Positions 7,634 through 46,995 of a stretch of 64,000 nucleotides of DNA are shown piece after piece. Numbering within the stretch: the first letter of the stretch is position 1; the number at the start of each line of letters is the position of its first letter. The position numbers were made by a program, and so were the translations under genes. The notes under the pieces were generated by a model. It was given only the letters and a program-made list of their open reading frames with translations, was not told where the DNA came from and searched no databases. This stretch comes from Candidatus Edwardsbacteria bacterium. Its GTDB lineage: Bacteria > Edwardsbacteria > AC1 > EtOH8. Location of the stretch: NCBI GenBank assembly GCA_020053305.1, contig JAGVNJ010000009.1, positions 10,426 to 74,425 on the forward strand, in the 5' to 3' direction.

Positions 7634-8944
7634 ATGCCAAGATATAGATTGATCATCCCCGTTCTGCTGTTGTTGCTGCCGGCCCTGTCCCGGGGACAGG
7701 AGAAGACGGCGGTGGCGGTGCTGCAGTTCGAGCCCCGCAACATCAGCCAGGCCGAGGCGGTGATCCTGTCGGACCGCCTGCGGGCCGAACTGGTGAACAC
7801 CCGCCACTTCAACGTGCTGGAGCGGGAGCAGATGGACAAGATCCTGAGGGAGCAGAAATTCCAGCTGACCGGGGCCTGCAGCGACGCCTCCTGCCTGGTC
7901 CAGGTGGGGCAGCTGATGGCGGTATCCAAGATGATGGGCGGCACCATCTCCAAGATTGGCAACACCTACACCGTCCAGGCCCGGGTGATAGACGTGGAGA
8001 AGGGGGTCATCGAGACCGAGGTCTCCCAGGATTTCACCGGCACCATCGAGGACCTCCAGCAATGGGGCATGAAGAAGGTGGTCTGGAAGATGGTGCCCTC
8101 GGCCAGCCTGTTCGTAGCCTCCATTCCGGGCGACGCCGACATCTACTGGGACGCCCGGAAGGTGGGCCGGACCGATTTCAAGATAGAGAACGAGGCTTTG
8201 GGGGTCCACCGGATCGTCATCAAAAAGCCCGGCTACAAGGATTACGACGGCAGCGTGGACCTCAAGGAGGTGCGGGATTACGACATCAAGGTGCGGCTGA
8301 ATGTCATGGAGTATGCGGTCAATATTGACGGAACACCCCCGGGGGCCCAGGTGGTGATGAACGATACCGTCAAATTGGGACTCATGCCGTGCACCGCCAA
8401 GCTCCCCTTCGGAACATATAATTTCAAGATCAAGGCCAAGGGCTATCACCAGAACGCCGGGCTGCTGAACATAGACCGGGACCAGGATTACAGCCTGAAC
8501 CTCAACCTCAAGCGCAAGTCCCGGACCAAGGCCGCCATATCGTCGCTGTTCCTTCCCGGCAGCGGCCAGCGCTACTCCAACCGCCCGGTGATGGGCACCC
8601 TGTATCTGCTGGCCGGAATTGCCGGGCTGGGCTACAGCGGGTTTGCTATCGCCGCCCGGCAGGATGCCCTAAAAACCTGCCAAGACCGGGAGGATCAATA
8701 TCTATCGGCCGACAACGCGGTGGACGCCCAGACATGGTATCTGGACTGGCAGTCCAAATATGACGAGCTGACCGACCAGGACGATAAGATGAGGACCGCC
8801 ATCACCCTGGCCGCGGTGGCTTGGGGAGTGAATTTCCTGGATGCCATGGCATTTTTCCCGGGCAAACCCAGGGTCAAGGTCGCACCGGTGCCGGACAAGA
8901 CCGGGCAGATGAAGACCTCGGCCACCCTAACTTACAGTTGGTGA
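7634..8944 (+). CDS. Exported CsgG/HfaB-like plus PEGA-domain protein with C-terminal hydrophobic segments
   Basis: AVAVLQF...LEREQMDKILREQKFQ (CsgG-like); two SxPxxA...GxT PEGA repeats; SLFLPGSGQRY membrane motif. Confidence 0.75.
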   Translation: MPRYRLIIPVLLLLLPALSRGQEKTAVAVLQFEPRNISQAEAVILSDRLRAELVNTRHFNVLEREQMDKILREQKFQLTGACSDASCLVQVGQLMAVSKMMGGTISKIGNTYTVQARVIDVEKGVIETEVSQDFTGTIEDLQQWGMKKVVWKMVPSASLFVASIPGDADIYWDARKVGRTDFKIENEALGVHRIVIKKPGYKDYDGSVDLKEVRDYDIKVRLNVMEYAVNIDGTPPGAQVVMNDTVKLGLMPCTAKLPFGTYNFKIKAKGYHQNAGLLNIDRDQDYSLNLNLKRKSRTKAAISSLFLPGSGQRYSNRPVMGTLYLLAGIAGLGYSGFAIAARQDALKTCQDREDQYLSADNAVDAQTWYLDWQSKYDELTDQDDKMRTAITLAAVAWGVNFLDAMAFFPGKPRVKVAPVPDKTGQMKTSATLTYSW

Positions 8945-8945
8945 G

Positions 8946-9935
8946 GTGAAGATGATGAAAAAGATATTTAATAATAACGTCATTCTGAGGGATGCTTTCA
9001 ACAGGACCATCGAAGAATCTGATCCTTCGGCTTGCCGGGCATGGTGGGATTCTCAGGATGACGATAGGAATGATAAAAGGTTGCGAGCGGCTGGAGGCAT
9101 TATTATATCGGCCTTTGCCATTCTGTATCTGGCCCTGTCCGGGTGCAGCCGGCCGGTGGCGCCCAGCCACAGCAACCCCCATGATCCCGACAATCCCGAT
9201 TTCACCGGGCCGGCGGTGGAGATCATCTCCCCGGTCGAGGGGGCATCGATAGCTTCCGGCACCGCCACCATCCATCTGCACGGCTCCGGCCTGAACTATG
9301 AGTACTCCTACAAGCTGGACAACGCCCCGGATTGGCATACTCCGTGGTCCAACGATACCATTCTGACCATAACCAATCTCAGGGAAGGTCCGCATACCAT
9401 CCAAGCCATAGCCCGGGATAAGGGCGGCTATCTGGGTTTGCCGACCCCGGTGCGGAATTTCACGATCAACCAGTATGCCAACACCGTGCTGATGTATCCC
9501 CCGACCCAGACCATCGCCGTGGGGGACACCGCCGAGGTGTGGTGCGAGTTGGAGGATATGGCCACCCCGGTCTCGGCCGTCAGGCTGGTGATCTACATGA
9601 GCAATTATACGATGGCGGACACCCTTAGCGCCTGCGCCGACACCGGGTACCATTGGAGGAGCAACGGGGGATCGCCAATGGGGCCGTTCTTCAGCAATTA
9701 CAGCAACAATTATTATATGGACGTCAGCCTGGGGGTGGCCGGGGGAAGCCCGGCCGGGGTCAGCGGAACGGGGCGGATATTCAAGATCCAGGCCGCCGGG
9801 GTGTCGGTTGGCACAACGTATATGTATGTCAATAACATTTACGCCCGGGATACCTTGAACAATCCTATAACCGTGACCAACCCCTACAAGTACGCTTACA
9901 TATATGTCACTTCCGGCAAGGAGGGCGGGAAATGA
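8946..9935 (+). CDS. Lipoprotein with Ig-like and cohesin-like domains
   Basis: LALSGC lipobox followed by NPHDPDNP; YSYKLD...LREGPHT Ig module; VGDTAEV...GVSGTGRIFKIQ cohesin-like module; exact start uncertain. Confidence 0.7.
   Translation: MKMMKKIFNNNVILRDAFNRTIEESDPSACRAWWDSQDDDRNDKRLRAAGGIIISAFAILYLALSGCSRPVAPSHSNPHDPDNPDFTGPAVEIISPVEGASIASGTATIHLHGSGLNYEYSYKLDNAPDWHTPWSNDTILTITNLREGPHTIQAIARDKGGYLGLPTPVRNFTINQYANTVLMYPPTQTIAVGDTAEVWCELEDMATPVSAVRLVIYMSNYTMADTLSACADTGYHWRSNGGSPMGPFFSNYSNNYYMDVSLGVAGGSPAGVSGTGRIFKIQAAGVSVGTTYMYVNNIYARDTLNNPITVTNPYKYAYIYVTSGKEGGK
8978..9063. repeat. 86-bp bipartite palindromic element in-frame upstream of the lipoprotein signal
   Basis: Outer arms CGTCATTCTGAG / CTCAGGATGACG; inner arms CGAAGAATC / GATCCTTCG. 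Confidence 0.8.
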
Positions 9936-12900
9936 AGAAGTTTTTATTGATGACGCTGGCGCTGGCCGCTATCGGATCCGGACGAGCCCTATCACAAGAT
10001 GTGCCGTTTCTCTATTTCCCGCCGGCCGATACCGCCACCAACGACAGCTTCCCCAACTTCGACTGGTCCGACGTGGCCACCGCCACCCAGTATGAACTGC
10101 AGGTGGGGAAGGGGCACCGCTGGATCTTCGCCCCTTACTATTACGGCGACTTTCATACCTATAATGTATCCAAACCGTCCCAGCCGGAATTCGGAGGCAA
10201 CGCATACGGAGGCAACGCCTCGGATGTGGCCATCAAGGACAGCTTCGCCCTGATAGCCTCAAACACCGCGATTTACACCATCAACATCTCCGATCCCACC
10301 GCCCCCGAATACCGGGGCGGAACAGCAATAGGCACCAACGACCTTAACGGGATAGTCATCCGGGACACCCTGGCCTACTTGGCCGACTGGGGCTACGGAC
10401 TGCGCATCGCCAACGTCAAGAACCCCCTGACTCCGGTGCTGGTGGGCTCCTACGACAGCCCGGGCAGCCCTCGGGGCCTGGCATTGAGCGGCAATTACGT
10501 TTACCTGGCCGACGCCAACAGCGGCCTGCAGGTGATTGATGTTACCGACCCCGCCAATCCGGTATCGGCCGGCGGGCTGGACACCCCGGGCGACGCCTTC
10601 GCCGTGGCGGTGGCCGGGAATTACGCCTATGTGGCCGACAACACCAGCGGAATGAGGGTGATCAACATCTCCAATCCCGCCTCGCCGGTGGAGTCCGGCA
10701 GTTTCACCTCATCCGGCAACGTGATGGGGGTGACCGTCAAGGGAAGCCTGGCCTACCTGGCCGCCGGAGCGGACGGGCTCAGGATCGTCAACATCTCCAA
10801 TCCGGCCAGCCCCATTGAATTCGGCTATCACGATTCCTCCGGCCTCTCCAGCGATTACCGCAAGGTGGTGCTGGACGACAGCCTGGCCTATGTGGCCGAC
10901 TGGAACAACGGCCTGTTCATCATCAATGTGGCCGACCCCTATCATCCCCGGACCGTCAGCCGCTATAATTACCAATATTACAAGTCGCTGGCCCTGCTGG
11001 ATTCCTTCGCCCCGGTCAAGATCGACAGTCTGGTGGCCGCTTCGAACTGCGAGCCCGACACTTTCCTGGCCGACGGGGCCTACTACTGGCGGGCCAGGGC
11101 CGGAGCCGGGACCTGGGGCGGCTACAGCCCGCCCCGCCGCTACCTGATGGACACCCAGGCCCCGCCGGCTTGCTGGATAAACACCCCGTCCTACAACCAA
11201 CTGATCAACGACAAGACCCCGGCATTCTCCATCACCAAACAGTATAGCGAATACCGGTTCCAGCTTCAGATCGCGACCGACACCGCTTTTACGACGGTAA
11301 TCACAGACACCGTTTCCCTGACCGAAAACTTCGAACTGCAGACCCCGCTGCCCGACGGCTGGCTTTACTGCCGGGTTAGAGGAGGAGACCTGGCAGGCAA
11401 CTGGGCGGTATGGAGCAGCCGCCTGCCCATCAAACTGGACAGCCAGGCCCCGGGACAGCTGACCGCGGTCACCGCCAACGGGTCCAACCCCAGCCCCTGG
11501 ACCAAGAACAATTCCTTCTCCATAAACTTTACCGTACCGCCGGACAGTTCCGCAATCAACGGATATTTTTACAAGATCGGCTCGGCGCCCTCTTCCAATT
11601 ACGACACCACCGATTACGGAGTCAGCTTTTCCAAGCCCTTCAGCATTTCGGTCGGCAGCGACGGGGTGACGCCCTTTTATGTCTGGGCCCGGGACCAGGC
11701 CAACAACCTGGATTTCCAGAATGCCGGATCGGTCAGCCTGCGCTATGATCATATCCCCCCACAGGGGGCGACTGCCCGTTCCAACGAATTCAGCCGCGCC
11801 AATGGTTTCGCGATAACCTGGAGTGCCGGCAGCGATCAGGGGGGCTCGGGGTTGAACGGCAATCACTGGATAAAATACAAGGTCAATTCCGGAAGCTGGA
11901 CCGATCTGGACGTCAATTATGCCGGGACCTCATATAATTTCAACGGGGCCCAGGGCAACAAATATTACTTCGAGGTGGCGGCCTGGGATTCGGCCGGCAA
12001 CTCCGAGGCCTTTGCCTCGGTGGCCGAATGCAGCACCCTGGTGGACAACACCATCACCTGCCCCATCCTGGTATCGCCCTATAACGGGGCTGTCCGGGAC
12101 AGCTCTGCCACGGCCTTCCTGTGGCAGAGGGCCACGGCCCAGGCCGGGTCGCGCCTGCAGTGCTCGTATAATTCCACCTTCAGCGCATTGGTCAAGGACA
12201 CCCTGCTGGCGGCCGACAGCTCCGGCACCCTGGCCCTGAACGATTCTCTGTATTACTGGCGGGTCAGGGGCGAGAACGGCCCGACAGACACCAGCGGCTG
12301 GTCGCCGGCCCGCGCCCTGCGGATAGACACCCAGGCTCCGGAGGCCCCGTTTCTGGCCGAGCCGGCCAATGATACCCTTTGTAACGACAATACTCCGCTG
12401 TTCGTCTGGAAGAACGTGGCCGGGGCGGTCTGGTACCGCCTGGCGGTCAGCCCGGACAGCGCCTTCGCCGCCGTTATGGTCGACGAGGTAATTGATACCA
12501 CGGCTTACAACATTCAGGTTACCCTGCCCGACAGTCTATATTACTGGCGGGTCCGGGCCGGCGACGCCGCCGGCAACTGGTCGGCTCCGTCCGAAAAATG
12601 GAAATTCACCGTGGACACCAAGGCCCCGGCGGTGCCGGTGGCGGTGGCCCCGTCGGACAATGCCAACCTGACCACCAATCTGCCGCAATTCGTCTGGCGG
12701 AGCTCGGCCCAGGCCGTCCGATACCAGCTGCAGGTGGCCAATAACCCCTCTTTCTCGCCGCTGGAGACCGACACCGCACTGTCCGACACCTCGGTCGTCC
12801 CGGTCTGGGGGGTCAACGACGGGACCCACTACTGGCGGGTGCGCTGCCGTGACCTGGCCGGCAACTGGTCGGCCTACGGCAATTACCGGACACTAAACAT

Positions 12901-14170
12901 CAGCGGCTTGTTGCAGGTGGCCCTGATCACCCCGGGCACCGGCCAAGTATGGCCGGCCGGCCAGTCTATTTGGATCCAGTTCACCAAGCCCCTGTATACC
13001 GGCTACATCGACACCATCCACGTCAAGGTCCGGGGGAAACACACCTCCATCGTCAGGCAGAGCCTGACCTGGCAGGCGGCCAGCCGCACTTTGCTGATAT
13101 CGCCCGACAGTACTTTTGCCGCCAACGACACCATCACGGTGTTCCTGCACGGCACCTTAAGGGATTCGGCCAATGTCTCCACCCTGGACGGCAACTACAG
13201 CGGGACCGCCACCGGAGATTCCTCCGACAGCTACCAGATGACCTTCTACACCTCGTATTTCGGGGACTACGATGGCAACCGGCTGGTCAACGCCGCCGAT
13301 CTGGGGATGTTCGCCTGGGCCTGGTACCAGCCGGCCTATTACCGAATGTTCGAGGCCGGCCCCTTGAGCGGCAGCTGGCCGCACCAGCGGGTGTATGTGG
13401 GCGGCTCCACCCGGATCGACTTCGAGGACCTGAGCGGCTTCATCTACTCCTGGAACCGGGCCGACAATCCCAAATCAGCCAAATCCGGCGGTTATCAGGA
13501 AGGGCCGGTCAGCCTGGAGGCGGCGCCCGAGGGGAAATTGAAGCTGATCGCCAAGGTATCCCCGGAAATCGATTTTGCCTCGATGGATGCCGAGATCGAA
13601 TACGACCAGTCGCTACTGAATGTCAAATCCCTGGAGCCATCAGCTCTCTGGCAGGGGGGAGACAAGCCGCAGCTGTTCCTCAGCAAGCAGAGGGAGGGAC
13701 GGATCATCATCAGCGCCGCCAAATGGCAGGAGAGCCAGGAACTATCCGGCCAGCTGTTCACCATGACCTTCGATGGAAACCAGGCAGTCCAGACCCCGGT
13801 GACCCTTTATTACCGGCTGTACGACCGCCAGGGGGCCGAGATATTCAGCGGGAACACGGCCCTGTCGCTGAATGCCGGACCCGGAATCCCGGCCGGATTT
13901 TTCCTGGGCCGGGCCGCTCCCAACCCCACGAATCGGCCGATGACCATCAATTATCAGCTGCCCAGGCAGGCCCGGGTCAGGCTGGAGGTGTATAACATCG
14001 CCGGACAGCAGGTGGCCACCCTGGTGGATGCCGACCAGCCGGCCGGATATTACACCCAGACCTGGGACCTCAGGGACCGCGGCCGGAACCGGGTGGCCAA
14101 TGGCATCTATTTCTACAAGCTGTCGGCCGGGGAATACCAGAACGTCAGCAAGGTGGTGATAATCCGCTGA
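9932..14170 (+). CDS. Large secreted protein: LVIVD beta-propeller, Fn3/Ig repeats, SbsA-Ig, dockerin-like, cohesin-like and FlgD-Ig/T9SS-like C-terminal domain
   Basis: Repeated AYxAD..GL.II(N/D)(I/V)SNP; repeated YYWRVR modules; GDYDGNRLVNAADL and IDFEDL; PNP...VYNIAGQ...W...NGIYFY. Confidence 0.85.
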   Translation: MKKFLLMTLALAAIGSGRALSQDVPFLYFPPADTATNDSFPNFDWSDVATATQYELQVGKGHRWIFAPYYYGDFHTYNVSKPSQPEFGGNAYGGNASDVAIKDSFALIASNTAIYTINISDPTAPEYRGGTAIGTNDLNGIVIRDTLAYLADWGYGLRIANVKNPLTPVLVGSYDSPGSPRGLALSGNYVYLADANSGLQVIDVTDPANPVSAGGLDTPGDAFAVAVAGNYAYVADNTSGMRVINISNPASPVESGSFTSSGNVMGVTVKGSLAYLAAGADGLRIVNISNPASPIEFGYHDSSGLSSDYRKVVLDDSLAYVADWNNGLFIINVADPYHPRTVSRYNYQYYKSLALLDSFAPVKIDSLVAASNCEPDTFLADGAYYWRARAGAGTWGGYSPPRRYLMDTQAPPACWINTPSYNQLINDKTPAFSITKQYSEYRFQLQIATDTAFTTVITDTVSLTENFELQTPLPDGWLYCRVRGGDLAGNWAVWSSRLPIKLDSQAPGQLTAVTANGSNPSPWTKNNSFSINFTVPPDSSAINGYFYKIGSAPSSNYDTTDYGVSFSKPFSISVGSDGVTPFYVWARDQANNLDFQNAGSVSLRYDHIPPQGATARSNEFSRANGFAITWSAGSDQGGSGLNGNHWIKYKVNSGSWTDLDVNYAGTSYNFNGAQGNKYYFEVAAWDSAGNSEAFASVAECSTLVDNTITCPILVSPYNGAVRDSSATAFLWQRATAQAGSRLQCSYNSTFSALVKDTLLAADSSGTLALNDSLYYWRVRGENGPTDTSGWSPARALRIDTQAPEAPFLAEPANDTLCNDNTPLFVWKNVAGAVWYRLAVSPDSAFAAVMVDEVIDTTAYNIQVTLPDSLYYWRVRAGDAAGNWSAPSEKWKFTVDTKAPAVPVAVAPSDNANLTTNLPQFVWRSSAQAVRYQLQVANNPSFSPLETDTALSDTSVVPVWGVNDGTHYWRVRCRDLAGNWSAYGNYRTLNISGLLQVALITPGTGQVWPAGQSIWIQFTKPLYTGYIDTIHVKVRGKHTSIVRQSLTWQAASRTLLISPDSTFAANDTITVFLHGTLRDSANVSTLDGNYSGTATGDSSDSYQMTFYTSYFGDYDGNRLVNAADLGMFAWAWYQPAYYRMFEAGPLSGSWPHQRVYVGGSTRIDFEDLSGFIYSWNRADNPKSAKSGGYQEGPVSLEAAPEGKLKLIAKVSPEIDFASMDAEIEYDQSLLNVKSLEPSALWQGGDKPQLFLSKQREGRIIISAAKWQESQELSGQLFTMTFDGNQAVQTPVTLYYRLYDRQGAEIFSGNTALSLNAGPGIPAGFFLGRAAPNPTNRPMTINYQLPRQARVRLEVYNIAGQQVATLVDADQPAGYYTQTWDLRDRGRNRVANGIYFYKLSAGEYQNVSKVVIIR

Positions 14171-21083: not shown

Positions 21084-21112
21084 AGTTTACTAACTAAATA
21101 AGGATTTGTCAA
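21084..21112 (-). promoter_or_regulatory. Promoter of holA (very short leader)
   Basis: TTGACA-17 bp-TAAACT, ending 11 nt before the ATG. Confidence 0.65.
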
Positions 21113-30746: not shown

Positions 30747-31415
30747 CTAAACGGGTTGAATGCATTGGATGGAATTGTTCCGGGGGGAATTGACCAGGCG
30801 GGCCACCTGATGGCAATCCATGGTCTCCGGGGGATACGGTCGGAGCAGGACCCCCATGGCTTTTTCGTCGAAAACATCGTTGTCCAACCAGAGATGGTAA
30901 TCCTTCCGGGCGATTATGGCCGGCATCCGGTCATGCACCGGCTGCATCAGGGAGTTGGCCGCTGTGGTGATGATGGTGCAGCTGTCAAGCGCCCCTCCGT
31001 CGGGGCCGCGCCATGATTCGAACAGTCCGGCCAGGCCCATGGGGACGGGATCCTTTAGGTGGAAATAATAGGGAACCTTCTGCCCGCCCCGGCCGCCCCA
31101 CTCATAAAAACCGTCGGCTATGACCAGGCAGCGCTTTCTCTGAAAAGGCTTTTTAAAGCTGGGCTTCCCGCTCAGGGTCTCAGCCCGGGCGTTGATCATT
31201 TTGTACCCGGTCTTCTCATCCTTGGCCCAGGGCGGGATCAGGCCCCAGCGGAATGCCTTGACGGTCAGCCGGTCTCTTTTGACCACTGCCGCCACAGCGT
31301 TCCCCGGAGCAATATTATAACTGGGCTCCAGCAGAAAAGAGATATCGTTCAAGCCGATATCGAATTCCAGCGCTATCTCCTCCCCGCTGCTTTTCCTGAC
31401 GAACCTGCCGCACAT
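30747..31415 (-). CDS. SOS response-associated peptidase (SRAP/HMCES, YedK-like)
   Basis: N-terminal MCGRF; YNIAP, WGLIP, INARAE, GFYEW and HDRMP motifs. Confidence 0.95.
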   Translation of the reverse strand: MCGRFVRKSSGEEIALEFDIGLNDISFLLEPSYNIAPGNAVAAVVKRDRLTVKAFRWGLIPPWAKDEKTGYKMINARAETLSGKPSFKKPFQRKRCLVIADGFYEWGGRGGQKVPYYFHLKDPVPMGLAGLFESWRGPDGGALDSCTIITTAANSLMQPVHDRMPAIIARKDYHLWLDNDVFDEKAMGVLLRPYPPETMDCHQVARLVNSPRNNSIQCIQPV

Positions 31416-31419
31416 GATG

Positions 31420-32871
31420 TCACCCCGGCTCGCGTATTGACATCACTTCACCCTTGCTGAGGAAGCAGTTGCGGAGCGAATTGTCCGTCAGATGCTTGAG
31501 TATCTCATCAAGCAGTTGCCTGGCAATTTCCCGTTGCTCCCCGGCCCTGCCCGGTTCTCCCAGAGCCGTAAATATTTGATGCCCCAGGGAATGGACCTGC
31601 AGGGCGAATGACTTGTGTACAATCTCCGACAGCTCCGTCTTCAGGGTTATATATTCCTCCCGGGCCTCCGGCCACCTCCCCTGCCGCGCCAGGGCCCGCA
31701 TCTTACCGTAAAGCAACAGGCATCGATCGTTTTTTCTCAATGCCCGGCCGTCACGGCACAAGTACCTGTCGATTAATTCAACGGCCTCGCCCGGCGGCCG
31801 AAGACATGACAACACCCGTAGACGGACCAGCTCCAGGCGGGCCGACAGTTCCGTTTCCTCAATCTCCCGACCTATCTCCAAAGCGAGATCCAGATGCCTC
31901 TCCGCATCTCCGGGACAATCCATCAGAGAATAACAATGGGCCAAATAGCCGTTGGTGACGGCCTCGGTCGGCCGGTCATTGACCTCCCGGACAGCAGCGA
32001 TTGACGCCCGGAGGTGTTCGATCCCTTTATGATAATCGGCCAGGTCAACGTACATTTGCCCCATCATTTCATTCCCCAGCCCTACACTGATAAGGTCTTC
32101 CGCCTCTCTGCCCAGCTCCAAGCATCGGCGCGCCAAGGCAAAGGCTCGGTCGTAATCGCCCTGGTGCCAGTACATTTCCGAAACGTTCCCCGATACCACC
32201 GCACTGCCAAGCTTGTACCCGGCGCGATCGTAATGCTTGACGGCCGAGGCGTAGGCCTGAATGGTTTCCGCTGTCCGGTTCTGGCCCCTCAGGCAGATTC
32301 CCAGATTGTTGTAGGCGTCTCCCAGGATGTCGACCGAATTGAATCTCTCGTAGACTGTTATAGCCTGCCGCAGCAGGCTCTCGGCAGGCTGAAGCTGGTT
32401 GCCGTACACCAGGGTCAGACCCTTGTCCAGCCAGATGCCGGCCCGGGCCAGATCGCTGTCGGCATGCTTTTCTGCCTCCTGATAATACTGCAGGGCCTGG
32501 CGGGTCAGAGTCTTTTCGCGAGCTATCAAAGCCCGCCATTCGTAAGCCTGACGGATTATATTTTTATCGGTGTCAGCCTCGATCACTTCCAATAGCCTGT
32601 CGGCCAGTTCCTCGGCCTTATTCAGATCGCCGATAACGCTGAAATGCCTTACCTGCATTATTAAAAAATCGATTTGGTGATCGTTCCGGTCAATCCGCAG
32701 AAGCAGTTTCCCCAGGGTTTCAAGCAGTTCCCGTTCCTGCACCCGCTCCGCCAGCAGATTTATTATGTTCAACTTCTGGCTGTAAAGGTACCAGAGCTTC
32801 TCCATCCACTGCGCGGCTGTGATTTCCCCGTCTGACGCATATTTATAATTTTGCTTAGCCATAAATTTCAA
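31420..32871 (-). CDS. Stand-alone MalT-like TPR protein
   Basis: Repeats such as AYNNLGICL..A...Y..A and GNVSEMY..GDY..A; start could be 32862. Confidence 0.75.
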   Translation of the reverse strand: MKFMAKQNYKYASDGEITAAQWMEKLWYLYSQKLNIINLLAERVQERELLETLGKLLLRIDRNDHQIDFLIMQVRHFSVIGDLNKAEELADRLLEVIEADTDKNIIRQAYEWRALIAREKTLTRQALQYYQEAEKHADSDLARAGIWLDKGLTLVYGNQLQPAESLLRQAITVYERFNSVDILGDAYNNLGICLRGQNRTAETIQAYASAVKHYDRAGYKLGSAVVSGNVSEMYWHQGDYDRAFALARRCLELGREAEDLISVGLGNEMMGQMYVDLADYHKGIEHLRASIAAVREVNDRPTEAVTNGYLAHCYSLMDCPGDAERHLDLALEIGREIEETELSARLELVRLRVLSCLRPPGEAVELIDRYLCRDGRALRKNDRCLLLYGKMRALARQGRWPEAREEYITLKTELSEIVHKSFALQVHSLGHQIFTALGEPGRAGEQREIARQLLDEILKHLTDNSLRNCFLSKGEVMSIREPG

Positions 32872-33506
32872 CGGTACAGCTTCCCCCGATACTTAATTTC
32901 CTCAATATACATCACTTCGCAGGAGCCGTCCCCGGCGTCCTCCCGGCTCAGGGATGAGTTCCACCAGAAATTGCTCTCTCCTTTAACGGCATCCACATAG
33001 ACCAGAAAACCGTAGGCTTCGATAGTGTCCCAGGCCGAGATGTTCCGCAGGGCCGCCCGGAGGTTATCGTTGGCCGGGATGGCGTGGACGTTAGCCGAAT
33101 AACGGGCAATGAAGGTATTGTCAAAGGGGAATTCCTCGTCATAACGCCAGTAATACCAGCGGTTGCTTTGCGACCAGCGCACTTTTTTATACAAGCCGGT
33201 GGTGGTCATCTTGCCCCAGGCCACCGCCAGGTCGCAGGGGGCTATGGTCGAGTTCCAATCCGAGCCGTAATTTTTTCTGCTCAACACCAAGCCTTTTAAA
33301 ATATATTCGGCCTTTGGTTTTATAGTTATGTCGTAGTCATTGGCCGAAATTTTGATCGGGTTCTGATCCTCCAGTGGCAGCTGCACCGGATCGTCCCGAA
33401 TATCGATCGTTTCGCTGTCGACGGTCCCTTCCGGCGGAGTCCCGCAGGATTGCAGCAATATCAGGCAAAATATGATCATCAGGATAACCGTGGCGTTTCG
33501 GGACAT
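32868..33506 (-). CDS. Hypothetical lipoprotein
   Basis: LLQSC lipobox; DLAVAWG, SQSNRWY, SANVHAIP and SSLSREDAGDGSCE look like conserved motifs. Confidence 0.8.
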   Translation of the reverse strand: MSRNATVILMIIFCLILLQSCGTPPEGTVDSETIDIRDDPVQLPLEDQNPIKISANDYDITIKPKAEYILKGLVLSRKNYGSDWNSTIAPCDLAVAWGKMTTTGLYKKVRWSQSNRWYYWRYDEEFPFDNTFIARYSANVHAIPANDNLRAALRNISAWDTIEAYGFLVYVDAVKGESNFWWNSSLSREDAGDGSCEVMYIEEIKYRGKLYR

Positions 33507-33532
33507 ATTTTTATCGCTCCTTTTTTAGATTC

Positions 33533-34801
33533 TCAGGCTTTGGCCACCGGCAGGTCGGCCCAGCTGGTGGTGTACCTGGGTGACAGCTTCAGCTGGCGCA
33601 TTTTCCATGGCTTGTCCACCCCCTGGGCAGCATAGAACACCGTGTTGCGACCCTGCGAAAGATTGATCTTATCAACCGCCTGCATGATGGCCTGTTTTTG
33701 CCGATGCTTTTTTTGATCGCTTTCCAGGTCCAGCTGCACCTGGCTGTCTGGCACCAGCCCGCTGAGCATGACCCCGGCCCGTTTGTAATTGTAGCCCGTT
33801 TTGAAGATTTTCTCCAGAGCCCGGCCGGCATATTTTATCAGCACGGGGGTGTGGCCGGTGGCGGTGGGCAATCCGACGGTCACGAAATTCCGGTATTGCG
33901 ATTCATCGCGAAAACTGCTGGTTTCGATAAAGACATGCACGAAGGCTGCCGCCGACCGCTGCCTCCTGACCTTTTCGGCAGAGGCCGCAGTGAACTCCGC
34001 CACTGCCTGGCTTAACTGGGTCCTGTCCCTGATGAGCTGGCCGAAGGACCTCGAAGTAAGAACGGCTTTCTTGGGTCTGGCAAAATGTTCCAGCCGGATG
34101 CAAGTCGTCCCCCGCAGCTCGGTGACGGTCCGCAATCCCGTCACGGTCATATTCTTTTTTATCCAGGCGTCGGGCCTGGTGGCCAGCTGCAATGCGTTAT
34201 GGATGCCGTGCCGGTTGAGAAGTTTGGCGTACCGGAACCCCACCCCCCAGATATCCCCGACCTCCAGCTGCTCCAGGTAATCATCCACAGCAGGGTTCAG
34301 GGACAGATCCAGAATGCCGTCGCATTCGGGGATTCTCTTGGCGAACCTGTTGGCGGCCTTGGCCAGGGTCTTGGTCAAGCCCAGACCGATCGACACCGGT
34401 ATCCCGGTCCATTTACGGACGGTGCGGCGGATCTCCCGGGCGCAGCTTTCCAGGTCGCCTGTCGTGCCGGACAGGGTCAGGAAGGCCTCGTCTATGGAAT
34501 ATATCTCCATCTGGGGTGAGAACTGTTTCAGGGTCTCCATCACCCGGTTGGACATATCGCCGTACAAGGTGAAATTGGCAGAAAAAACCTGGATGTTGTG
34601 CCGATCGATCAAGTCCTGCTGTTCAAAAAAAGGCTCGCCCATCCTGATGCCGGCGGCCTTGGCCTCGTTGGAGCGGGCGATGATGCAGCCGTCGTTATTG
34701 GAGAGCACCACCACCGGGAGCTTGGCCAGCCGGGGATCGAAGACCCTCTCGCAGGAGGCATAGAAATTGTTGCAGTCCACCAGGGCAAAGACCGTATCCA
34801 T
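33533..34801 (-). CDS. umuC: Y-family DNA polymerase V subunit UmuC
   Basis: LVDCNNFYASCE, LSNNDGC, YSIDE, SRSFG and C-terminal SPRYTT motifs. Confidence 0.96.
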   Translation of the reverse strand: MDTVFALVDCNNFYASCERVFDPRLAKLPVVVLSNNDGCIIARSNEAKAAGIRMGEPFFEQQDLIDRHNIQVFSANFTLYGDMSNRVMETLKQFSPQMEIYSIDEAFLTLSGTTGDLESCAREIRRTVRKWTGIPVSIGLGLTKTLAKAANRFAKRIPECDGILDLSLNPAVDDYLEQLEVGDIWGVGFRYAKLLNRHGIHNALQLATRPDAWIKKNMTVTGLRTVTELRGTTCIRLEHFARPKKAVLTSRSFGQLIRDRTQLSQAVAEFTAASAEKVRRQRSAAAFVHVFIETSSFRDESQYRNFVTVGLPTATGHTPVLIKYAGRALEKIFKTGYNYKRAGVMLSGLVPDSQVQLDLESDQKKHRQKQAIMQAVDKINLSQGRNTVFYAAQGVDKPWKMRQLKLSPRYTTSWADLPVAKA

Positions 34802-34808
34802 AAAGAAC

Positions 34809-35270
34809 CTACACCGAATGGATCACGTGTATCACCACCCCCCAGATGTCGAAATCCATCTCCGGGGTGACCTCCAGGTCCCGATATTCCGGGTTCTCGG
34901 CGGCCAGAAAGGTCCGGTCCTTTTTTCGGCGCAGGCGTTTGACCGTCAGCTCTCCGTTGACCGCCGCCACCACGATCTTCCTGTCGATCGGCTCCAGGGA
35001 CCGGTCCACTATCAAGACATCTCCGGAATGAATGCCCGCCTGGATCATGGAATTACCCTGGACCCTGACGAAAAATGTGGCCGCCGGATGCCGGATCAGG
35101 TGTTCGTTAAGGTCCAGCTTCTTGTCCAGAAAATCATCGGCCGGCGAGGGAAACCCTGCAGCGATGCTGGCCAGGTAGAGCGGCAATTTCAGCTTTCCCC
35201 CGGCCTGGAAACCGCATATTTTCATTTCCGAAGGGGATTGTTTGTTTTTTATCTTCATTATCTTTAACAT
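34809..35270 (-). CDS. umuD: UmuD (S24 autoprotease)
   Basis: AAGFPSPA cleavage site, GNSM Ser, VKRL Lys; no HTH; start uncertain (35225, 35258 or 35270). Confidence 0.93.
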   Translation of the reverse strand: MLKIMKIKNKQSPSEMKICGFQAGGKLKLPLYLASIAAGFPSPADDFLDKKLDLNEHLIRHPAATFFVRVQGNSMIQAGIHSGDVLIVDRSLEPIDRKIVVAAVNGELTVKRLRRKKDRTFLAAENPEYRDLEVTPEMDFDIWGVVIHVIHSV

Positions 35271-35382
35271 ATTGTAAATTCGCTGGATCAATTGAAATAT
35301 ATCATTTATACCGTTGGCTTTCAAGAGAAATTGTCCTCAAGGCATGATATATTATTTTGACCAGGAAATGATCAAGTTATTA

Positions 35383-41975: not shown

Positions 41976-42001
41976 AAGCCCCTTCTTACGAAGGGGCTTT
42001 T
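41976..42001. terminator. Bidirectional terminator between pyrE and the SBP-TonB gene
   Basis: AAGCCCCTTC-TTAC-GAAGGGGCTTTT. Confidence 0.85.
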
Positions 42002-42015
42002 AAAAAATCTCTATG

Positions 42016-44175
42016 TTATTTCATGAACGGATAGGGAATGGTGATATAGGTTTCGGACGGCTTGCCGTTCTTGGTGCCGGGTTTGAACACCGCTTTGTAA
42101 GCAGCCTCCGCAGCAGCCTCGTCGCAGCCGTAGCCGATGCCCTTAATCACTTCGGCGTTCTTGACCTTGCCGTCGGTGCCCACCAGTATCTTTACAAACA
42201 CCCGGCCGGTGATCCCGGCTTTGCGGGCGGATTCCGGATAATACGGAGAAACTATTTTCAGCGCTTCCGGCTCGGTAGGCATGATCTCCGGCTCCTTGGG
42301 TTCCTCAACCGCAGGCGTGGCTGCCGCCGGAGTCGGGGTAGCCTCGGCCACCAGCAAGTCCTGGGGGTTCACTGCGGCCGGCTTGGGCGGGGCTGGCGGC
42401 GCTGTTGTGACCGCCCTGGGAGCAGGCTGTTCGGTTCTGGTGGCTATGGGCTGGGGCTTGGTTGCTTCTGCGGTTGTCGGTTTTTGCGGCTGCCCTCTTT
42501 CCGGGGTTACGGCCTCCACCGGCTGGGATGGCGGAGGCGGGGTCACTGCGGCCGATGAAGCGGAGGCCATGGCCTCTCCCCTTCTTTCGGCGGCCGGGAT
42601 CCACCACTCGTCCAGCGAAGCCATCGGCCCGCGGGCGTCCTGGACCGGACCCTTGACCCCCTTGTAGATGATGGTGACCACGTCCGGGACGTAGAGATAG
42701 GTGGCCGGCATCTCGGTGTTGACCACCTGTTGGAATTTTACCCAGATATCCTTGGCCTTGCGGCGGCTCAAAGTGGCCAGCCCCTTGTCGATCAGGCTGT
42801 CCACCGAGGGATTGGAATACTTGAGGATAAAATTATAGATGCCCTTCTCCGGTGTGGAATGCCACACCGCCGTGGGATCGACCTTGAAATCGTTCTTCCA
42901 TGAGAACAGCATGGCGTCGTACTGTCCGCTTCTCAGGCGCTGGATGAAGGTCCTGGCATCCACCACCGCCAGGTTGACCTTGACCCCGACGCCCTTCAAC
43001 TGCTCCCTGATCAGGACCGCGGTGGCCTCCTGCACCGGCTGCCCCTGGGCCAGCAGCAGATTCAACTCCAGCACCTGCTTGGGACCCTTGGCCAGGTAGC
43101 CTTCGCGGTTCTTGTCCTTCCATCCCAGTTCGGCCAGCAGGGCTTTGGCCTGATCGGGATCATATGGCTGAGGTTTCATATTCTGATCATAGGCCCAGCT
43201 GGTGGGCAGGAACGGCCCGTTGGCCGGCTTGCCCTTGCCCATCAGAACGTCGTTGATCAACGCGATCTGGTCGATGCTCAGGGCGAAGGCCTTGCGCAGA
43301 CTTACGTCGGAGAACAGCTGGCTGTTCAAATTCCAGCCGATGAAGGTGAAATTTCGTCCGGGATATTCGATGGAGGTCAGGTTGGGATCGCCCTGTACCT
43401 TGAGGGCATACTGGGGCGACAGGTCGTTGGTCATATCCACCGAGCCGCTCTGCAGGGCGTTCATCAGGCTGGTCTCGTCGCCGAAGAATTTGAATACGAT
43501 CCGGTCCAGGGCCGGCTTGCCCTTGTAGAAGTCCGGGTTGGCGGCCAGCACCAGGCGGTCCCCCCGCACCCATTCCTCCACCCTATACGGTCCGTCGCTG
43601 ACCGGATTGGCGTCGAAGTCGGCGGAATTGGCGGCGCTCAGCTTCTCCAGGATATGCTTGGGCAGGACCATGATCCCGGTGTCGAACAGTTCGTCGGAGT
43701 AAACCCGGTTGAAGACGAACTTCACCGCCAGGGGCCCCACCACCTCGACCTTCTCCACGAACTGCAGGCCGCCCGCCCGGGCGTATTTTATCTGGGGATC
43801 GCGCATCATGTCGAAGGAGAACTTGACATCCTCGGCGGTCACCGGCTGCCCGTCGCTCCACTTGGCGTTCTTACGCAGGACATAGGTGACCTCCTTGAAA
43901 TCCTCCGAGAACTTCCAGGAGCGGGCCAGCCCGGCCACGATGTTCATGCCCTGGTCGAAACGGTGCAGGCTCATGAATAGTTTTTCATGGATATCGGTGG
44001 AGGCGGTGAATGACAGCCGCAACGGGTTCAAGGAGGCCGGCTCGTTCATGGTGCCGATGGTCAGCGTCCCTCCGGATTCGCTGTCCGGATACTTTTCGCT
44101 CTTGGAACATCCGGACAGCACCAGAAAGAATCCGGCGATCACTAAAAATAATCCACGAAAAACCCATGATCTCAT
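42016..44175 (-). CDS. Lipoprotein fusing an OppA/DppA-type (family 5) solute-binding domain, a Pro/Ala linker and a TonB C-terminal domain
   Basis: LSGC lipobox; LNP, LARSW, KWSDGQPVTAEDVKFS, GPY and YDPDQAKALL motifs; C-terminal YPESARKAGITGRV.V..LVGTDG.V...GCDEAA..FKPG..NG. Confidence 0.9.
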   Translation of the reverse strand: MRSWVFRGLFLVIAGFFLVLSGCSKSEKYPDSESGGTLTIGTMNEPASLNPLRLSFTASTDIHEKLFMSLHRFDQGMNIVAGLARSWKFSEDFKEVTYVLRKNAKWSDGQPVTAEDVKFSFDMMRDPQIKYARAGGLQFVEKVEVVGPLAVKFVFNRVYSDELFDTGIMVLPKHILEKLSAANSADFDANPVSDGPYRVEEWVRGDRLVLAANPDFYKGKPALDRIVFKFFGDETSLMNALQSGSVDMTNDLSPQYALKVQGDPNLTSIEYPGRNFTFIGWNLNSQLFSDVSLRKAFALSIDQIALINDVLMGKGKPANGPFLPTSWAYDQNMKPQPYDPDQAKALLAELGWKDKNREGYLAKGPKQVLELNLLLAQGQPVQEATAVLIREQLKGVGVKVNLAVVDARTFIQRLRSGQYDAMLFSWKNDFKVDPTAVWHSTPEKGIYNFILKYSNPSVDSLIDKGLATLSRRKAKDIWVKFQQVVNTEMPATYLYVPDVVTIIYKGVKGPVQDARGPMASLDEWWIPAAERRGEAMASASSAAVTPPPPSQPVEAVTPERGQPQKPTTAEATKPQPIATRTEQPAPRAVTTAPPAPPKPAAVNPQDLLVAEATPTPAAATPAVEEPKEPEIMPTEPEALKIVSPYYPESARKAGITGRVFVKILVGTDGKVKNAEVIKGIGYGCDEAAAEAAYKAVFKPGTKNGKPSETYITIPYPFMK

Positions 44176-44230: not shown

Positions 44231-44259
44231 AAATTATAATAAGTTAAGCGATTTGTCAA
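44231..44259 (-). promoter_or_regulatory. Promoter of the SBP-TonB gene
   Basis: TTGACA (44259-44254) with a TATAAT/TAATTT -10 at 15-17 bp; AAAGGAG RBS. Confidence 0.55.
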
Positions 44260-44317
44260 GTAAAATTTGTTGATTTGTCAATATTTCTGTAGTATAGTAT
44301 CTTTTCGGGAGGATTTT

Positions 44318-45352
44318 ATGAAGCACCGCCTCATTCTACAGATACTATTGGTGATGATTTTATCCGCAAATATTTTACGGGGAGCCGGCGACAATATGCC
44401 CAAAGCAACCATCTGCGATCTGCATTGCGATACCGCCATCAACCTGGCCGACGGTAAAGGGACCGGCGGAGCCGCGAAAAAAAGCCGGGTAACCTCGGAA
44501 AAACTAAAAGCCGGCGGGGTCGGCCTGCAGGTCTACGCCTGCTGGGTTTCTCCCAAATACCGCCATCGCAAGGCCTGGGACCGGACCCGGCAGTTGATCG
44601 CCGCCGTTAAAAAAGAGATATCGGATCATCCGGATGAAATGATGCTTGTCAGCGATAAAAAGAGCTGGCGGGAATGCCGTAAAAGTAAACGGATCGGGGT
44701 GATGCTGGCCGTGGAGGGTGGTCATGTGCTGGACGGGGATATCTCCCGGCTGGACTCCCTCCATGCCCAGGGGGTGAGAATATTGACCCTCACCTGGAAC
44801 AACTCCAACCAGTTTGCCACTTCGGCCTACAGCGCGCATAAGACCGGGATAGACAAGGGTCTCACGCCGTTGGGACGCAAACTCATTGCCCGGGCTGATA
44901 AAATGGGCATGCATATCGACCTCTCCCATTCCTCGGAGAAGACCTTCCGGGATGTGGTAAAGACCAGCCGGCTGCCTCCCCTGCTGTCCCATTCCTGCGT
45001 AAATTTTCTCAACGGGCATTTCAGGAACGCCTCGGACAAGCAGATCAAGGCGGTGGCCGATAAAAAGGGATTGATCGGCATCAATTTCTGTCCGGGCTTT
45101 TTAGGAGACAGGCATAAGCCGGTCTCCATCGAAAGCGTGGCCGACCAGTTCGAGTATATCAAGGAGCTGGCCGGAACCGATATCCTGGCCATCGGCTCGG
45201 ATTTCGACGGAATAAGGGAAACACCCGAAGGCTTGGACGGCCCGGACAAACTGCCTGATCTGCTGAATATGCTTAAATCCAGGGATTTCAGCCAAAAGGA
45301 ATTGGACGACATCGGCCTGAACAATACCTTGAGGTTCTTTGGCTGGCAGTGA
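44318..45352 (+). CDS. Membrane dipeptidase (peptidase M19) with an N-terminal signal
   Basis: DLHCD, VEG, LTWN, DLSH, SHS and GSDFDG motifs; GGGAGG RBS. Confidence 0.9.
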   Translation: MKHRLILQILLVMILSANILRGAGDNMPKATICDLHCDTAINLADGKGTGGAAKKSRVTSEKLKAGGVGLQVYACWVSPKYRHRKAWDRTRQLIAAVKKEISDHPDEMMLVSDKKSWRECRKSKRIGVMLAVEGGHVLDGDISRLDSLHAQGVRILTLTWNNSNQFATSAYSAHKTGIDKGLTPLGRKLIARADKMGMHIDLSHSSEKTFRDVVKTSRLPPLLSHSCVNFLNGHFRNASDKQIKAVADKKGLIGINFCPGFLGDRHKPVSIESVADQFEYIKELAGTDILAIGSDFDGIRETPEGLDGPDKLPDLLNMLKSRDFSQKELDDIGLNNTLRFFGWQ

Positions 45353-46215: not shown

Positions 46216-46995
46216 TTATTTCTGCCATAATATTTTGCTTCGCACACATTCAATAAAATCGCATTTAGTATAAAAATCAGACAAATCGCCCGATGTTTCC
46301 AGCAATACATATTTTAATCTTAGATTATTGACAACCCTTCTTATCGCCATCATCATTTGTTTCCCAAAACCCTTACCACGAAAGGTTTCATCTATTTCGA
46401 CATCAAACAATCTGGCGTAGCCGTCGAGTTCGGCGATGTATACCGAACCGATCATATCGCTGCCTAACTTGAACCAATAAGGTTTAAAGACATTAATGAA
46501 GGATGTTTGTAAAGGTTTAAGTTTAGAATACCATTCTTCTTGATAGTAATCTCTGTTCTTCAGCCTGGAGTGGTACCAATCAAAATATTCGGCAATAGAG
46601 GGCCTGTATAATTTGGCCTCTGTCGAGATGTCTTGGCTCTCGGCTTGCATAAAGATGGCATCGCTAAAAACAAGTCTTTTCTTACTAAAATGATCAACCC
46701 ACGTGATATCAATTTTCATTCCAGAGCCAATGTCATAACGGTTCGGAAGGTCCAGTTTATTATTCCGGTGAATATCTTTAATCTGGTTAAGGACAATCTC
46801 CATTCCGCTTATAGAATTGGCGGTTACATTGATCGCCCGGTTGAAGTCACCGCTCCATGGGACAAAGGGATTTCTGACATGGATAAAACTATCATGTCTT
46901 TCCGGGATACCGCCATAGGCTTTTGTAAGTTCAACTTCTGATTCTATTGACAATTTTGCCCAATCCGGGTATATGAGAGTATTGCTATTTAACAT
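46216..46995 (-). CDS. AT-rich GNAT-family acetyltransferase
   Basis: Start re-called to ATG 46995 (TAATG overlap with the mlaE stop); VEIDETFRGKGFGK and FYTKCDF motifs. Confidence 0.8.
   Translation of the reverse strand: MLNSNTLIYPDWAKLSIESEVELTKAYGGIPERHDSFIHVRNPFVPWSGDFNRAINVTANSISGMEIVLNQIKDIHRNNKLDLPNRYDIGSGMKIDITWVDHFSKKRLVFSDAIFMQAESQDISTEAKLYRPSIAEYFDWYHSRLKNRDYYQEEWYSKLKPLQTSFINVFKPYWFKLGSDMIGSVYIAELDGYARLFDVEIDETFRGKGFGKQMMMAIRRVVNNLRLKYVLLETSGDLSDFYTKCDFIECVRSKILWQK

Follow-up and report, generated by a model that had tools for sequence, protein, structure and literature searches.

A 64,000-nucleotide stretch of a Candidatus Edwardsbacteria genome (assembly GCA_020053305.1, contig JAGVNJ010000009.1, positions 10,426 to 74,425; hereafter, the window) encodes a lipoprotein in which a complete family-5 solute-binding protein (SBP) domain is joined, through a proline-rich linker, to a TonB C-terminal (TonB_C) domain. 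Within its phylum this fusion occurs as a single-copy gene in nearly every genome, and it belongs to an old family that spans two phyla. Both of its domains are under purifying selection, and it is not, in general, the binding component of an ATP-binding cassette (ABC) importer. We propose, as a reading that is plausible but falls short of probable, that the fusion is a motor-less, lipid-anchored periplasmic receptor that docks on the TonB boxes of outer-membrane TonB-dependent transporters (TBDTs), captures a peptide-type ligand, and hands it over to peptidases.

The fusion gene is a single open reading frame (ORF) that starts with ATG and encodes 719 amino acids followed by a stop codon. Its parts, each with the evidence on which it was delimited (pLDDT, predicted local distance difference test), are as follows.

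42016..44175, minus strand: whole gene, encoding a lipoprotein with SBP_bac_5, linker, and TonB_C (ORF list, translation, Pfam, orthologs in two phyla)
44107..44175, minus strand: signal peptide with lipobox L-S-G-C, residues 1–23 (sequence reading)
42586..44088, minus strand: family-5 (cluster C) solute-binding domain, residues ~30–530, including D429 in W-K-N-D (Pfam, AlphaFold2, Foldseek)
42271..42585, minus strand: Pro/Ala/Thr-rich linker, residues 531–635, mostly disordered (composition, pLDDT)
42343..42369, minus strand: short conserved helix N-P-Q-D-L-L-V-A-E within the linker, residues 603–611 (alignments, AlphaFold2)
42019..42270, minus strand: TonB C-terminal domain, residues 636–719, with Y646-P647 and C684 (Pfam, AlphaFold2, fold match)

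The lipobox was read by eye and predicts lipidation of C23, which is invariant in 24 of 24 aligned family members; a cysteine is retained at this position in all 32 fusion rows, from both phyla. Lnt and LolA are both encoded in the source genome. Because the only hydrophobic helix of the protein is that of the signal peptide, the fusion lacks a TonB-type membrane anchor, and a Pfam scan of the protein revealed no signaling output domain. The full-length AlphaFold2 model, computed on a family alignment, has a mean pLDDT of 78.3. An earlier note on this DNA had described an ORF with a lipobox, a family-5 domain, a Pro/Ala/Thr linker of ~100 residues, and a TonB_C domain, and had remarked on the missing TonB transmembrane helix; the ORF list and Pfam bear out this anatomy.

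The two-domain architecture recurs well beyond this gene. Both Pfam domains are present in 31 of the 120 homolog clusters listed, which are 35–100% identical to the fusion and mostly 677–725 residues long, carry the source names "TonB family protein" or "peptide/nickel transport system substrate-binding protein", and come from records titled candidate division TA06 and Candidatus Edwardsbacteria. Orthologs with E values of 3e-185 or better are found in 18 of the 19 genomes of the window's phylum. Fifteen of the matches span from residue 18 or earlier to at least residue 717, and those in G010, G016, and G001 are partial or cut by a contig end; G004, which is 66% complete, has a plain binding protein only and no match to the fusion. 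Four full-length fusion loci, 34–37% identical, are among the 80 related loci listed, in metagenome-assembled genomes titled WOR-3, Cloacimonadota, and Stahlbacteria. We sampled 151 genomes of a second phylum, that of G019, which is one of these metagenome-assembled genomes, and at a threshold of E ≤ 1e-80 found one copy of the fusion in each of 60, with 57 of the 60 matches extending to at least residue 713. Since the architecture is present in 31 of the 120 clusters and recurs across two phyla, it is not a product of chance. In a cluster search with the homolog P0009, the clusters obtained, all of at least 50 members, were plain SBP_bac_5 and none had both domains; this is a lead only, and the lack of a two-domain cluster there carries no weight.

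An assembly or frameshift artifact that merged two separate genes is, on this evidence, practically excluded. The frame is uninterrupted in the 15 end-to-end orthologs of the same phylum and in the 57 matches of the second phylum that reach the C terminus. Four sequencing runs that contain relatives, rather than this strain, were compared, and contigs of relatives from two of them bridge TonB_C, linker, and SBP: one (X4 record 16) spans 42160–42683 across the domain junction, and another (X5 record 24) spans 42017–43077 with one replaced stretch inside the linker. Matches were listed in 24 runs, with shares of 0.08 or less each and no RNA run among them. In four within-genus comparisons (dS 0.33–0.90), the ratio of nonsynonymous to synonymous substitution rates (dN/dS) was 0.07–0.10 for the SBP domain, 0.11–0.14 for TonB_C, and 0.17–0.39 for the linker, the most variable part of the fusion. 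Both domains are thus held by purifying selection, and the value for TonB_C indicates that this domain is in use. We found nothing in favor of an artifact, and the orthologs in two phyla, the bridging contigs, and the selection on both domains rule it out. The earlier note had proposed that the junction and the taxonomic spread of the architecture be checked, and the fusion came through both.

In a tree computed on the columns of the SBP domain alone, a branch with 100% SH-aLRT support divides all 32 fusions from the 28 nearest plain SBPs, and within the fusion group the two phyla separate cleanly. The tree is unrooted and was obtained by a quick search method; it omits near-duplicates or fragments (P0002, P0005, P0011, P0012, P0014, P0016, P0018, P0020, P0022, P0025, P0026, P0030, and P0031) and four loci whose ORF was missed by the motif filter (L039, L151, L158, and L159). 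Taken together, these observations fit a single old fusion event that would have been inherited since.

The binding domain has no cognate importer in the source genome, which is 99.05% complete. That genome has no match to oligo_HPY, which marks OppD/F-type ATPases. Of BPD_transp_1 permeases it encodes seven, namely two PstC/PstA pairs, an Ugp-like pair, and TupB, with no Opp/Dpp-type permease among them, and OPT, PTR2/POT, and CstA are likewise absent from the genome. None of its five family-5 binding-protein genes adjoins permease genes: apart from the fusion, one is fused to a methyl-accepting chemotaxis protein (MCP) domain, two lie upstream of histidine kinase and response regulator genes, and one is solitary. 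Across the window's phylum, oligo_HPY is missing from 18 of 19 genomes, including all 15 high-quality ones, G018 being the single genome with the signature; it is also missing from all four distant fusion carriers, for which no completeness value is given. In the second phylum, the OppD/F signature is present in 12 and missing in 48 of the 60 genomes with the fusion, and present in 5 and missing in 86 of the 91 genomes that lack the fusion. In the 12 genomes with both, the Opp genes lie on another contig or, in G033, 19 kb away, and never within 10 kb of the fusion.

It is accordingly very improbable that the fusion is an ordinary OppA/DppA/NikA-type ABC binding protein with an extra C-terminal domain and a permease encoded elsewhere. 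The full-length, well-folded binding domain would suit such a role, as would the OppD/F-type ATPases of G018 and of one-fifth of the second-phylum carriers (12 of 60). The missing permease and ATPase in the source genome and in most carriers, and the distance of the Opp genes from the fusion where they do occur, argue the other way, and for the source genome itself the ABC reading is close to refuted. The same absence tells against the direct hand-off of ligand put forward in the earlier note: an Opp/Dpp/Nik importer is missing from the source genome, from nearly the whole phylum, and from 48 of the 60 second-phylum carriers.

Confident modeling across residues ~30–530 and a strong profile match define the SBP domain. 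SBP_bac_5 (PF00496) matches residues 79–443 with an E value of 5.1e-94 (315.8 bits against a cut-off of 32.4), and Foldseek recovers the bilobed binding-protein fold, with AppA 1xoc at E 4.4e-46 and NikZ 4oet at a target-normalized TM-score of 0.90. The top Protein Data Bank match by sequence is likewise the Bacillus subtilis oligopeptide binder AppA (1xoc, E 2e-67), followed, by sequence and by fold, by NikZ, NikA, DppA, GbpA, and OppA. In HMMER alignments to 5f1q and 3m8u, D429 of the W-K-N-D motif aligns with the aspartate of W-T-G-D in DppA and of W-S-G-D in GbpA. These residues, Asp408 of DppA and Asp432 of GbpA, are described in PMC3295651 as salt-bridge partners of the amino terminus of the ligand. 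D429 is retained in 18 of 18 rows of the window's phylum as against 2 of 14 rows of the second phylum. For the window's phylum, we take a peptide, or some other compound that bears a free amino group, to be the most likely ligand; given how D429 is distributed, the ligand class may differ between the two clades.

Homology alone assigns no ligand class, since the fusion reaches none of the NCBIfam equivalog cut-offs (OppA, DppA, NikA, GsiB, SapA, and others) and all scores lie far below them. The best is Opp4A (223.9 bits against 650), followed by NikA (152.8 against 393), DppA (136.3 against 1005), and OppA (115 against 947). It is doubtful, though worth weighing, that the fusion docks in the way we propose with a metal chelate, heme, or corrinoid-like compound as its ligand, in the manner of NikA, NikZ, or HbpA. 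Such a ligand would fit the classical cargo of small TBDTs; the leading matches by sequence and by fold include NikZ, NikA, YntA, and heme-binding protein A; 12 of 14 second-phylum rows have another residue in place of D429; and the TBDT encoded beside the fusion in G024 comes nearest to the BtuB and heme-receptor families, under their cut-offs. Set against these points are the full retention of D429 in the window's phylum, the first place of AppA both by sequence and by fold, the peptidases that recur as neighbors, and the low equivalog scores, which assign no ligand class.

The C-terminal domain is recognized with comparable clarity. Pfam places TonB_C at residues 643–717 (E 1.8e-19, 70.4 bits against a cut-off of 24.6), NCBIfam tonB_Cterm (TIGR01352) scores 48.9 bits against 27.1, and the pLDDT of the domain is ~90. 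A separate model of residues 596–719 has as its best structural match 6i97_D, a TonB in complex with FoxA (E 5.6e-6, TM-score 0.81, root-mean-square deviation 1.8 Å), followed by TonB with TbpA, free TonB domains, and TonB with BtuB or FhuA (including 9dc4_T, 2gsk_B, and 2grx_C). Eight TonB structure entries match at E ≤ 0.001, and entries for TolA domain III match only at E above 0.29. As modeled, then, the domain is of the TonB type, not the TolA type. It is 29% identical to the C-domains of the two classical TonBs of the genome, which are 270 and 273 residues long, with an N-terminal hydrophobic segment and no lipobox. C684, the sole cysteine of the mature protein apart from the lipidated residue predicted at its start, is invariant in every family member from both phyla and replaces the leucine of the L-D-E-A-A motif of those classical TonBs.

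The linker that carries this domain comprises 105 residues (23% Pro, 20% Ala, 12% Thr), and its pLDDT falls below 50 at residues 534–599 and 614–631. Between these disordered stretches, the full-length model places a helix at residues 604–611 (block pLDDT 70), which is a conserved island in two family alignments; members of the second phylum show a similar acidic, Leu-rich stretch.

Among public representatives (P0122–P0270), many metagenomic proteins, 195–2103 residues long, carry 2–7 tandem TonB_C copies, often behind Peptidase_M56, and one of these tandem proteins (P0179) has an additional partial Plug match. A Gly-Cys-Asp/Glu-Ala variant of the helix motif of the fusion is found in 25 of the 149 representatives.

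We examined the candidate partners of the fusion in the window and in the genome. Pfam scans of the window, which covered 43 ORFs outside 38–48 kb plus the local genes, found no opp, exbBD, or TBDT gene, as the earlier note had claimed for the vicinity of the fusion. The Plug, MotA_ExbB, and other TonB_C matches of the genome lie on other contigs, and the BPD_transp_1 genes of the same contig lie beyond the window. The source genome encodes three TBDTs, of 645, 908, and 1007 residues. The smallest is BtuB/heme-like and adjoins a FecCD-type ABC system and a TonB; the two larger ones have CarboxypepD_reg N termini, and one of them is weakly SusC/RagA-like (64.5 bits against a cut-off of 368). 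Each TBDT has a TonB-box-like motif before its plug (G-I-V-V-T-A-T-R, G-I-T-V-T-A-E-R, and G-I-T-I-T-A-T-R). The genome also has one ExbB-ExbD-ExbD-TonB cluster and one Tol-like cluster; its two MotA_ExbB genes lie on contigs C29 and C52, adjoining other TonB_C genes, and the TolQ/TolA-like/TolB cluster is on C52. Every genome searched has TBDTs (19 of 19 in the window's phylum and 151 of 151 in the second), so that their presence or absence cannot serve as a test of a link to the fusion.

Three further features lie beside the gene.

44318..45352, plus strand: Peptidase_M19 dipeptidase with a hydrophobic, signal-like N terminus, divergent neighbor of the fusion (Pfam E 2.8e-85)
44236..44264, minus strand: sigma-70-like −35/−10 pair upstream of the start codon (consensus scan, pattern match only)
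41976..41999, minus strand: terminator-like hairpin followed by a T-run (consensus scan, pattern match only)

The M19 dipeptidase gene is the divergent neighbor of the fusion at 5 of 8 loci of the same phylum, in three genera, and its product is a possible functional partner of the fusion. In the second phylum, 16 loci were fetched, of which 10 were Pfam-scanned, L152, L153, L156, L157, L159, and L162 were judged by ORF layout, and L149 was judged from Plug coordinates. At two scanned loci, an M42-M42-M23 peptidase run immediately precedes the fusion on its own strand, and two more loci share this ORF layout. A BtuB/heme-like TBDT gene, whose product scores under the BtuB and heme-receptor family cut-offs, is divergently adjacent to the fusion in G024, 347 nt apart; a Plug gene adjoins the fusion in G031, a close relative of G024 on the tree; and a CarboxypepD_reg TBDT lies 2 kb away in G169. 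The remaining second-phylum neighborhoods are unrelated and include genes for cell-envelope sugars, for MscS, for a response regulator together with a kinase, and for an Hpt protein. No exbBD genes were found beside the fusion at the 8 same-phylum loci or at the 10 Pfam-scanned loci of the second phylum. Peptidases thus recur beside the fusion and transporters rarely do, and both are weak hints. Conserved 250-residue ORFs downstream of the fusion in G011, G015, and G018 were considered as neighbors and rejected as shadow ORFs antisense to pyrF.

The earlier note had credited the gene with its own promoter and terminator, and both are seen, as consensus matches only. The sigma-70-like pair (44264–44236) agrees with the consensus at 9 of 12 positions, in a lineage whose promoter type may differ, and sits in the divergent intergenic region common to the fusion and the M19 gene. 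The hairpin (41999–41976) has a 10-bp stem with 6 G-C pairs and lies 17 nt past the stop codon. The same intergenic region contains two copies of the 10-mer GATTTGTCAA, at 44250–44259 and 44272–44281 (plus strand), 22 nt apart. With a third copy at 21103–21112, the window holds three against 0.2 expected, a count reached in none of 100 shuffles. From its placement, the pair may be an operator common to the fusion and M19 genes.

TonB is known to contact the periplasmic binding protein FhuD in E. coli. A second such contact, invoked in the earlier note, is borne out by PMC9853854, which states, citing James et al. 2009, that purified BtuF and TonB interact. The same text reports that a TonB lacking the membrane helix binds BtuB and suffices for cobalamin release in native outer membranes. 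In the mechanism that we favor, which retains the tether suggested in the earlier note, the family-5 domain of the lipid-anchored fusion would capture a small ligand, and the flexible, Pro-rich arm of ~105 residues would present the TonB-type domain, which we infer to dock the receptor on the TonB boxes of outer-membrane TBDTs. The binding domain would thereby sit at the periplasmic exit, or inner mouth, of the transporter, and the fusion would amount to a covalent version of the contact reported between TonB and BtuF. Because a captured ligand has no Opp-type importer in this lineage, hand-over to periplasmic or membrane peptidases, such as the neighboring M19 dipeptidase, would be the simplest continuation, with the products then imported by other carriers.

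Several points weigh against this mechanism. A TonB_C domain that occupies TonB boxes without a motor would be expected to compete with the genuine TonB, and the model does not explain how this cost is avoided. At the 8 loci of the window's phylum, the fusion has neither a TBDT nor exbBD beside it; in the second phylum, adjacency to a TBDT is confined to G024 and G031, close kin, among 16 loci, and synteny that close relatives share does not count as independent evidence. The usual location of M42 aminopeptidases is the cytoplasm, which weakens the hint from the peptidase neighborhood. NikZ and heme-binding relatives score nearly level with AppA, and this, together with the loss of D429 from all but two of the second-phylum rows, makes a non-peptide ligand possible in part of the family. 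The anchor may lie in either membrane, given that LolA is present. Finally, TonB_C occurs in many non-TonB architectures, so docking on TonB boxes is not its sole conceivable role.

A different reading, which we consider unlikely but serious, is that the fusion is an envelope anchor or periplasmic sink. TonB_C domains can bind peptidoglycan, and here the domain would bind peptidoglycan, an outer-membrane protein, or another TonB_C rather than a specific TBDT, with the binding domain held as a ligand store, a chaperone, or part of an envelope tether. Four of the seven TonB_C proteins of the genome, namely the fusion, two PEGA+TonB_C proteins with signal-like N termini, and a 245-residue lipobox protein, lack a TonB-type N terminus and an ExbBD context. 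The domain is also highly modular at large (47,259 representatives at E ≤ 1e-3, the top ones with 2–7 tandem copies), the fusion has no TBDT neighbor in its own phylum, and a disulfide between its invariant lone C684 and a partner is conceivable; PMC7442780 and PMC9967938 discuss chaperone-like activity of OppA. However, the best structural matches are transporter-bound TonB domains and not TolA, the Y-P motif is retained with profile scores above the curated cut-offs, and the conservation of the ligand-contacting aspartate throughout the window's phylum argues for genuine binding of a small ligand.

A role as ligand-gated regulator or TonB mimic, the other idea in the earlier note, is also unlikely, by our assessment. 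Depending on the loading of the SBP domain, TonB_C would then compete with or replace TonB, either throttling the transporter when the periplasm is full or triggering substrate release without the ExbBD motor. Sensing uses of family-5 domains elsewhere in the genome (the MCPsignal+SBP_bac_5 protein and the two SBPs before a kinase) lend this some support, as do the response regulator with kinase, or Hpt protein, that adjoins the fusion at some second-phylum loci, and the modeled linker helix could mediate an intramolecular switch. Yet the fusion has no signaling output domain, and no regulator is a conserved neighbor in the window's own phylum.

An extension of our proposal by analogy goes further and seems improbable to us: the fusion might carry out a motor-free transport step, in which TonB_C engages the TonB box and unloads the TBDT, in the way that helix-less TonB unloads BtuB in vitro, and the SBP domain captures the cargo as a binding-energy ratchet. 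Entry would be made one-way by the covalently attached binding domain, C684 and the linker helix would serve as switching contacts, and in these phyla of small genomes the route from TBDT through free binding protein to ABC importer would be replaced by one that feeds periplasmic peptidases.

How cargo exits the barrel of a TBDT, and by what path it gets to the periplasmic binding protein, are two long-standing questions, and the role of the TonB–binding-protein contact reported in E. coli is unsettled. The fusion could serve as a natural "Rosetta stone" for that proposed contact, because it is kept in single copy under purifying selection across two phyla in which the ABC importer is mostly gone. 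It points to an undescribed link between outer-membrane transporters and periplasmic nutrient capture, and it indicates that family-5 binding proteins can serve outside ABC import. Apart from the lipid anchor, the mature protein is soluble, so that binding of ligands and of TonB boxes is directly measurable. Should the docking idea prove incorrect, the family would nevertheless point to a new role of TonB_C, a domain found in tens of thousands of uncharacterized multidomain proteins.

Other genes of the genome use the same two domains. On contig C2 of genome G000 (L018:8983–12336, minus strand), a 1117-residue protein combines an MCP signaling domain (residues 127–275) with a family-5 domain (663–1034), again placing the binding domain outside ABC import; many genomes of the same phylum, including G002, G003, G006, G008, G009, and G011–G015, have frames of ~1120–1180 residues with a match to the binding domain. 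On contig C9 (L020:8340–16177, plus strand), tandem family-5 genes for proteins of 494 and 491 residues lie directly upstream of a HAMP-HisKA-HATPase kinase, and the locus continues with a response regulator (RR) and an RR-PAS-GGDEF-HD protein; it looks like a binding-protein-dependent sensing module. Small TonB_C proteins that lack a TonB-type N terminus are encoded on contigs C1, C5, and C28 (L025:5247–5864, L026:7811–8431, and L027:12662–13399, all minus strand): two are PEGA+TonB_C proteins of ~205 residues with signal-like N termini, and one, of 245 residues, has the lipobox S-I-S-C. A PEGA-domain protein also adjoins a large TBDT (L022:4943–6220).

Elsewhere in the window, a 259-residue ORF without Pfam match (46216–46995, minus strand) lies between genes for an MlaF-like ATPase and an MlaE-like permease, in an island of low GC content (0.39–0.46, against ~0.55–0.60 around it). 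The corresponding gap in G005 holds a 496-residue AAA_21 protein, and this position within an mla-like operon seems to accept variable insertions. The cluster at 30747–35324 (minus strand), with an S24 LexA-like peptidase, an ImpB/UmuC-type polymerase, and TPR and SRAP proteins followed by UvrC and a methylguanine methyltransferase, looks SOS-related. At 7634–14170 (plus strand), genes for a 436-residue PEGA protein, a 329-residue ORF without family match, and a 1412-residue LVIVD-repeat/Big_13 protein stand in a row and may form a cell-surface module.

By its profile matches, the fusion belongs to the SBP_bac_5 and TonB_C domain families. We found no description of their combination in the full-text literature searched, which leaves most subscription journals outside its coverage, and nothing relevant in that literature on TA06/Edwardsbacteria and peptide; the suggestion in the earlier note that the architecture is undescribed agrees with this. 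Among known systems, the C-terminal half most resembles E. coli TonB of the TonB-ExbB-ExbD complex, in a C-domain that scores above the Pfam and NCBIfam cut-offs, in a predicted fold nearest to transporter-bound TonB, and in a Pro-rich arm that precedes this domain in a protein attached to a membrane at its N terminus. The fusion differs from TonB in its cleavable lipoprotein signal, which takes the place of the N-terminal transmembrane helix that couples to ExbBD, in the absence of nearby exbBD, in the 500-residue binding domain between anchor and arm, and in its limited identity (29%) to the two TonBs of its own genome, with an invariant cysteine for the leucine of L-D-E-A-A. Because it has neither membrane helix nor ExbBD link, the fusion is not a TonB. 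Nor does the fusion fit TolA of the Tol-Pal system, whose structures are matched only at E above 0.29; the tol cluster of the genome is on contig C52.

With the cluster C binders AppA, OppA, DppA, NikA/NikZ, and GbpA, the fusion shares the full binding domain, the lipoprotein signal, and, in the window's phylum, the aspartate that contacts an amino terminus. Unlike them, it has no cognate permease or ATPase in its genome or in most carriers, its scores stay under the equivalog cut-offs, and it bears a TonB_C domain, which is present in none of the 89 plain homolog clusters listed. It is therefore not an Opp/Dpp/Nik binding protein either, for want of an importer and of scores that reach the cut-offs.

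Joining of TonB_C to other modules has precedents in Peptidase_M56+TonB_C, CarboxypepD_reg+TonB_C, and tandem TonB_C proteins. Of 30 long TonB_C matches scanned, 21 were Peptidase_M56+TonB_C, 2 TPR+TonB_C, 1 FG-GAP+TonB_C, and 6 TonB_C alone, and none contained a binding-protein domain. The M56+TonB_C proteins are polytopic membrane proteins, whereas the fusion is a lipoprotein. The representative search, made with the C-terminal 124 residues, was swamped by tandem-TonB_C proteins, so that the closest donors of the domain were not singled out. In Bacteroides thetaiotaomicron, TonB1, 7, 8, 9, 10, and 11 carry TonB_C with extra domains and are functionally uncharacterized, according to PMC10350073.

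RagAB and SusCD offer a ligand-binding lipoprotein paired with a TBDT, and one of the large TBDTs of the source genome is weakly SusC/RagA-like; RagAB imports oligopeptides, as reported in bioRxiv 10.1101/755678. RagB and SusD, however, cover the barrel from its outer face as TPR-type lids, whereas the periplasmic-type SBP of the fusion would sit on the inner face, and no SusD-like gene was seen next to the TBDTs of the source genome. A further parallel is the contact between TonB and BtuF, in which a binding protein and the C-terminal region of TonB come together beneath a TBDT. BtuF and FhuD are of the Peripla_BP_2 type, are free in the periplasm, and feed BtuCD or FhuBC; in the fusion the link is covalent, the binding domain is of family 5, and no ABC importer lies downstream, so that the fusion would represent a permanent form of that contact.

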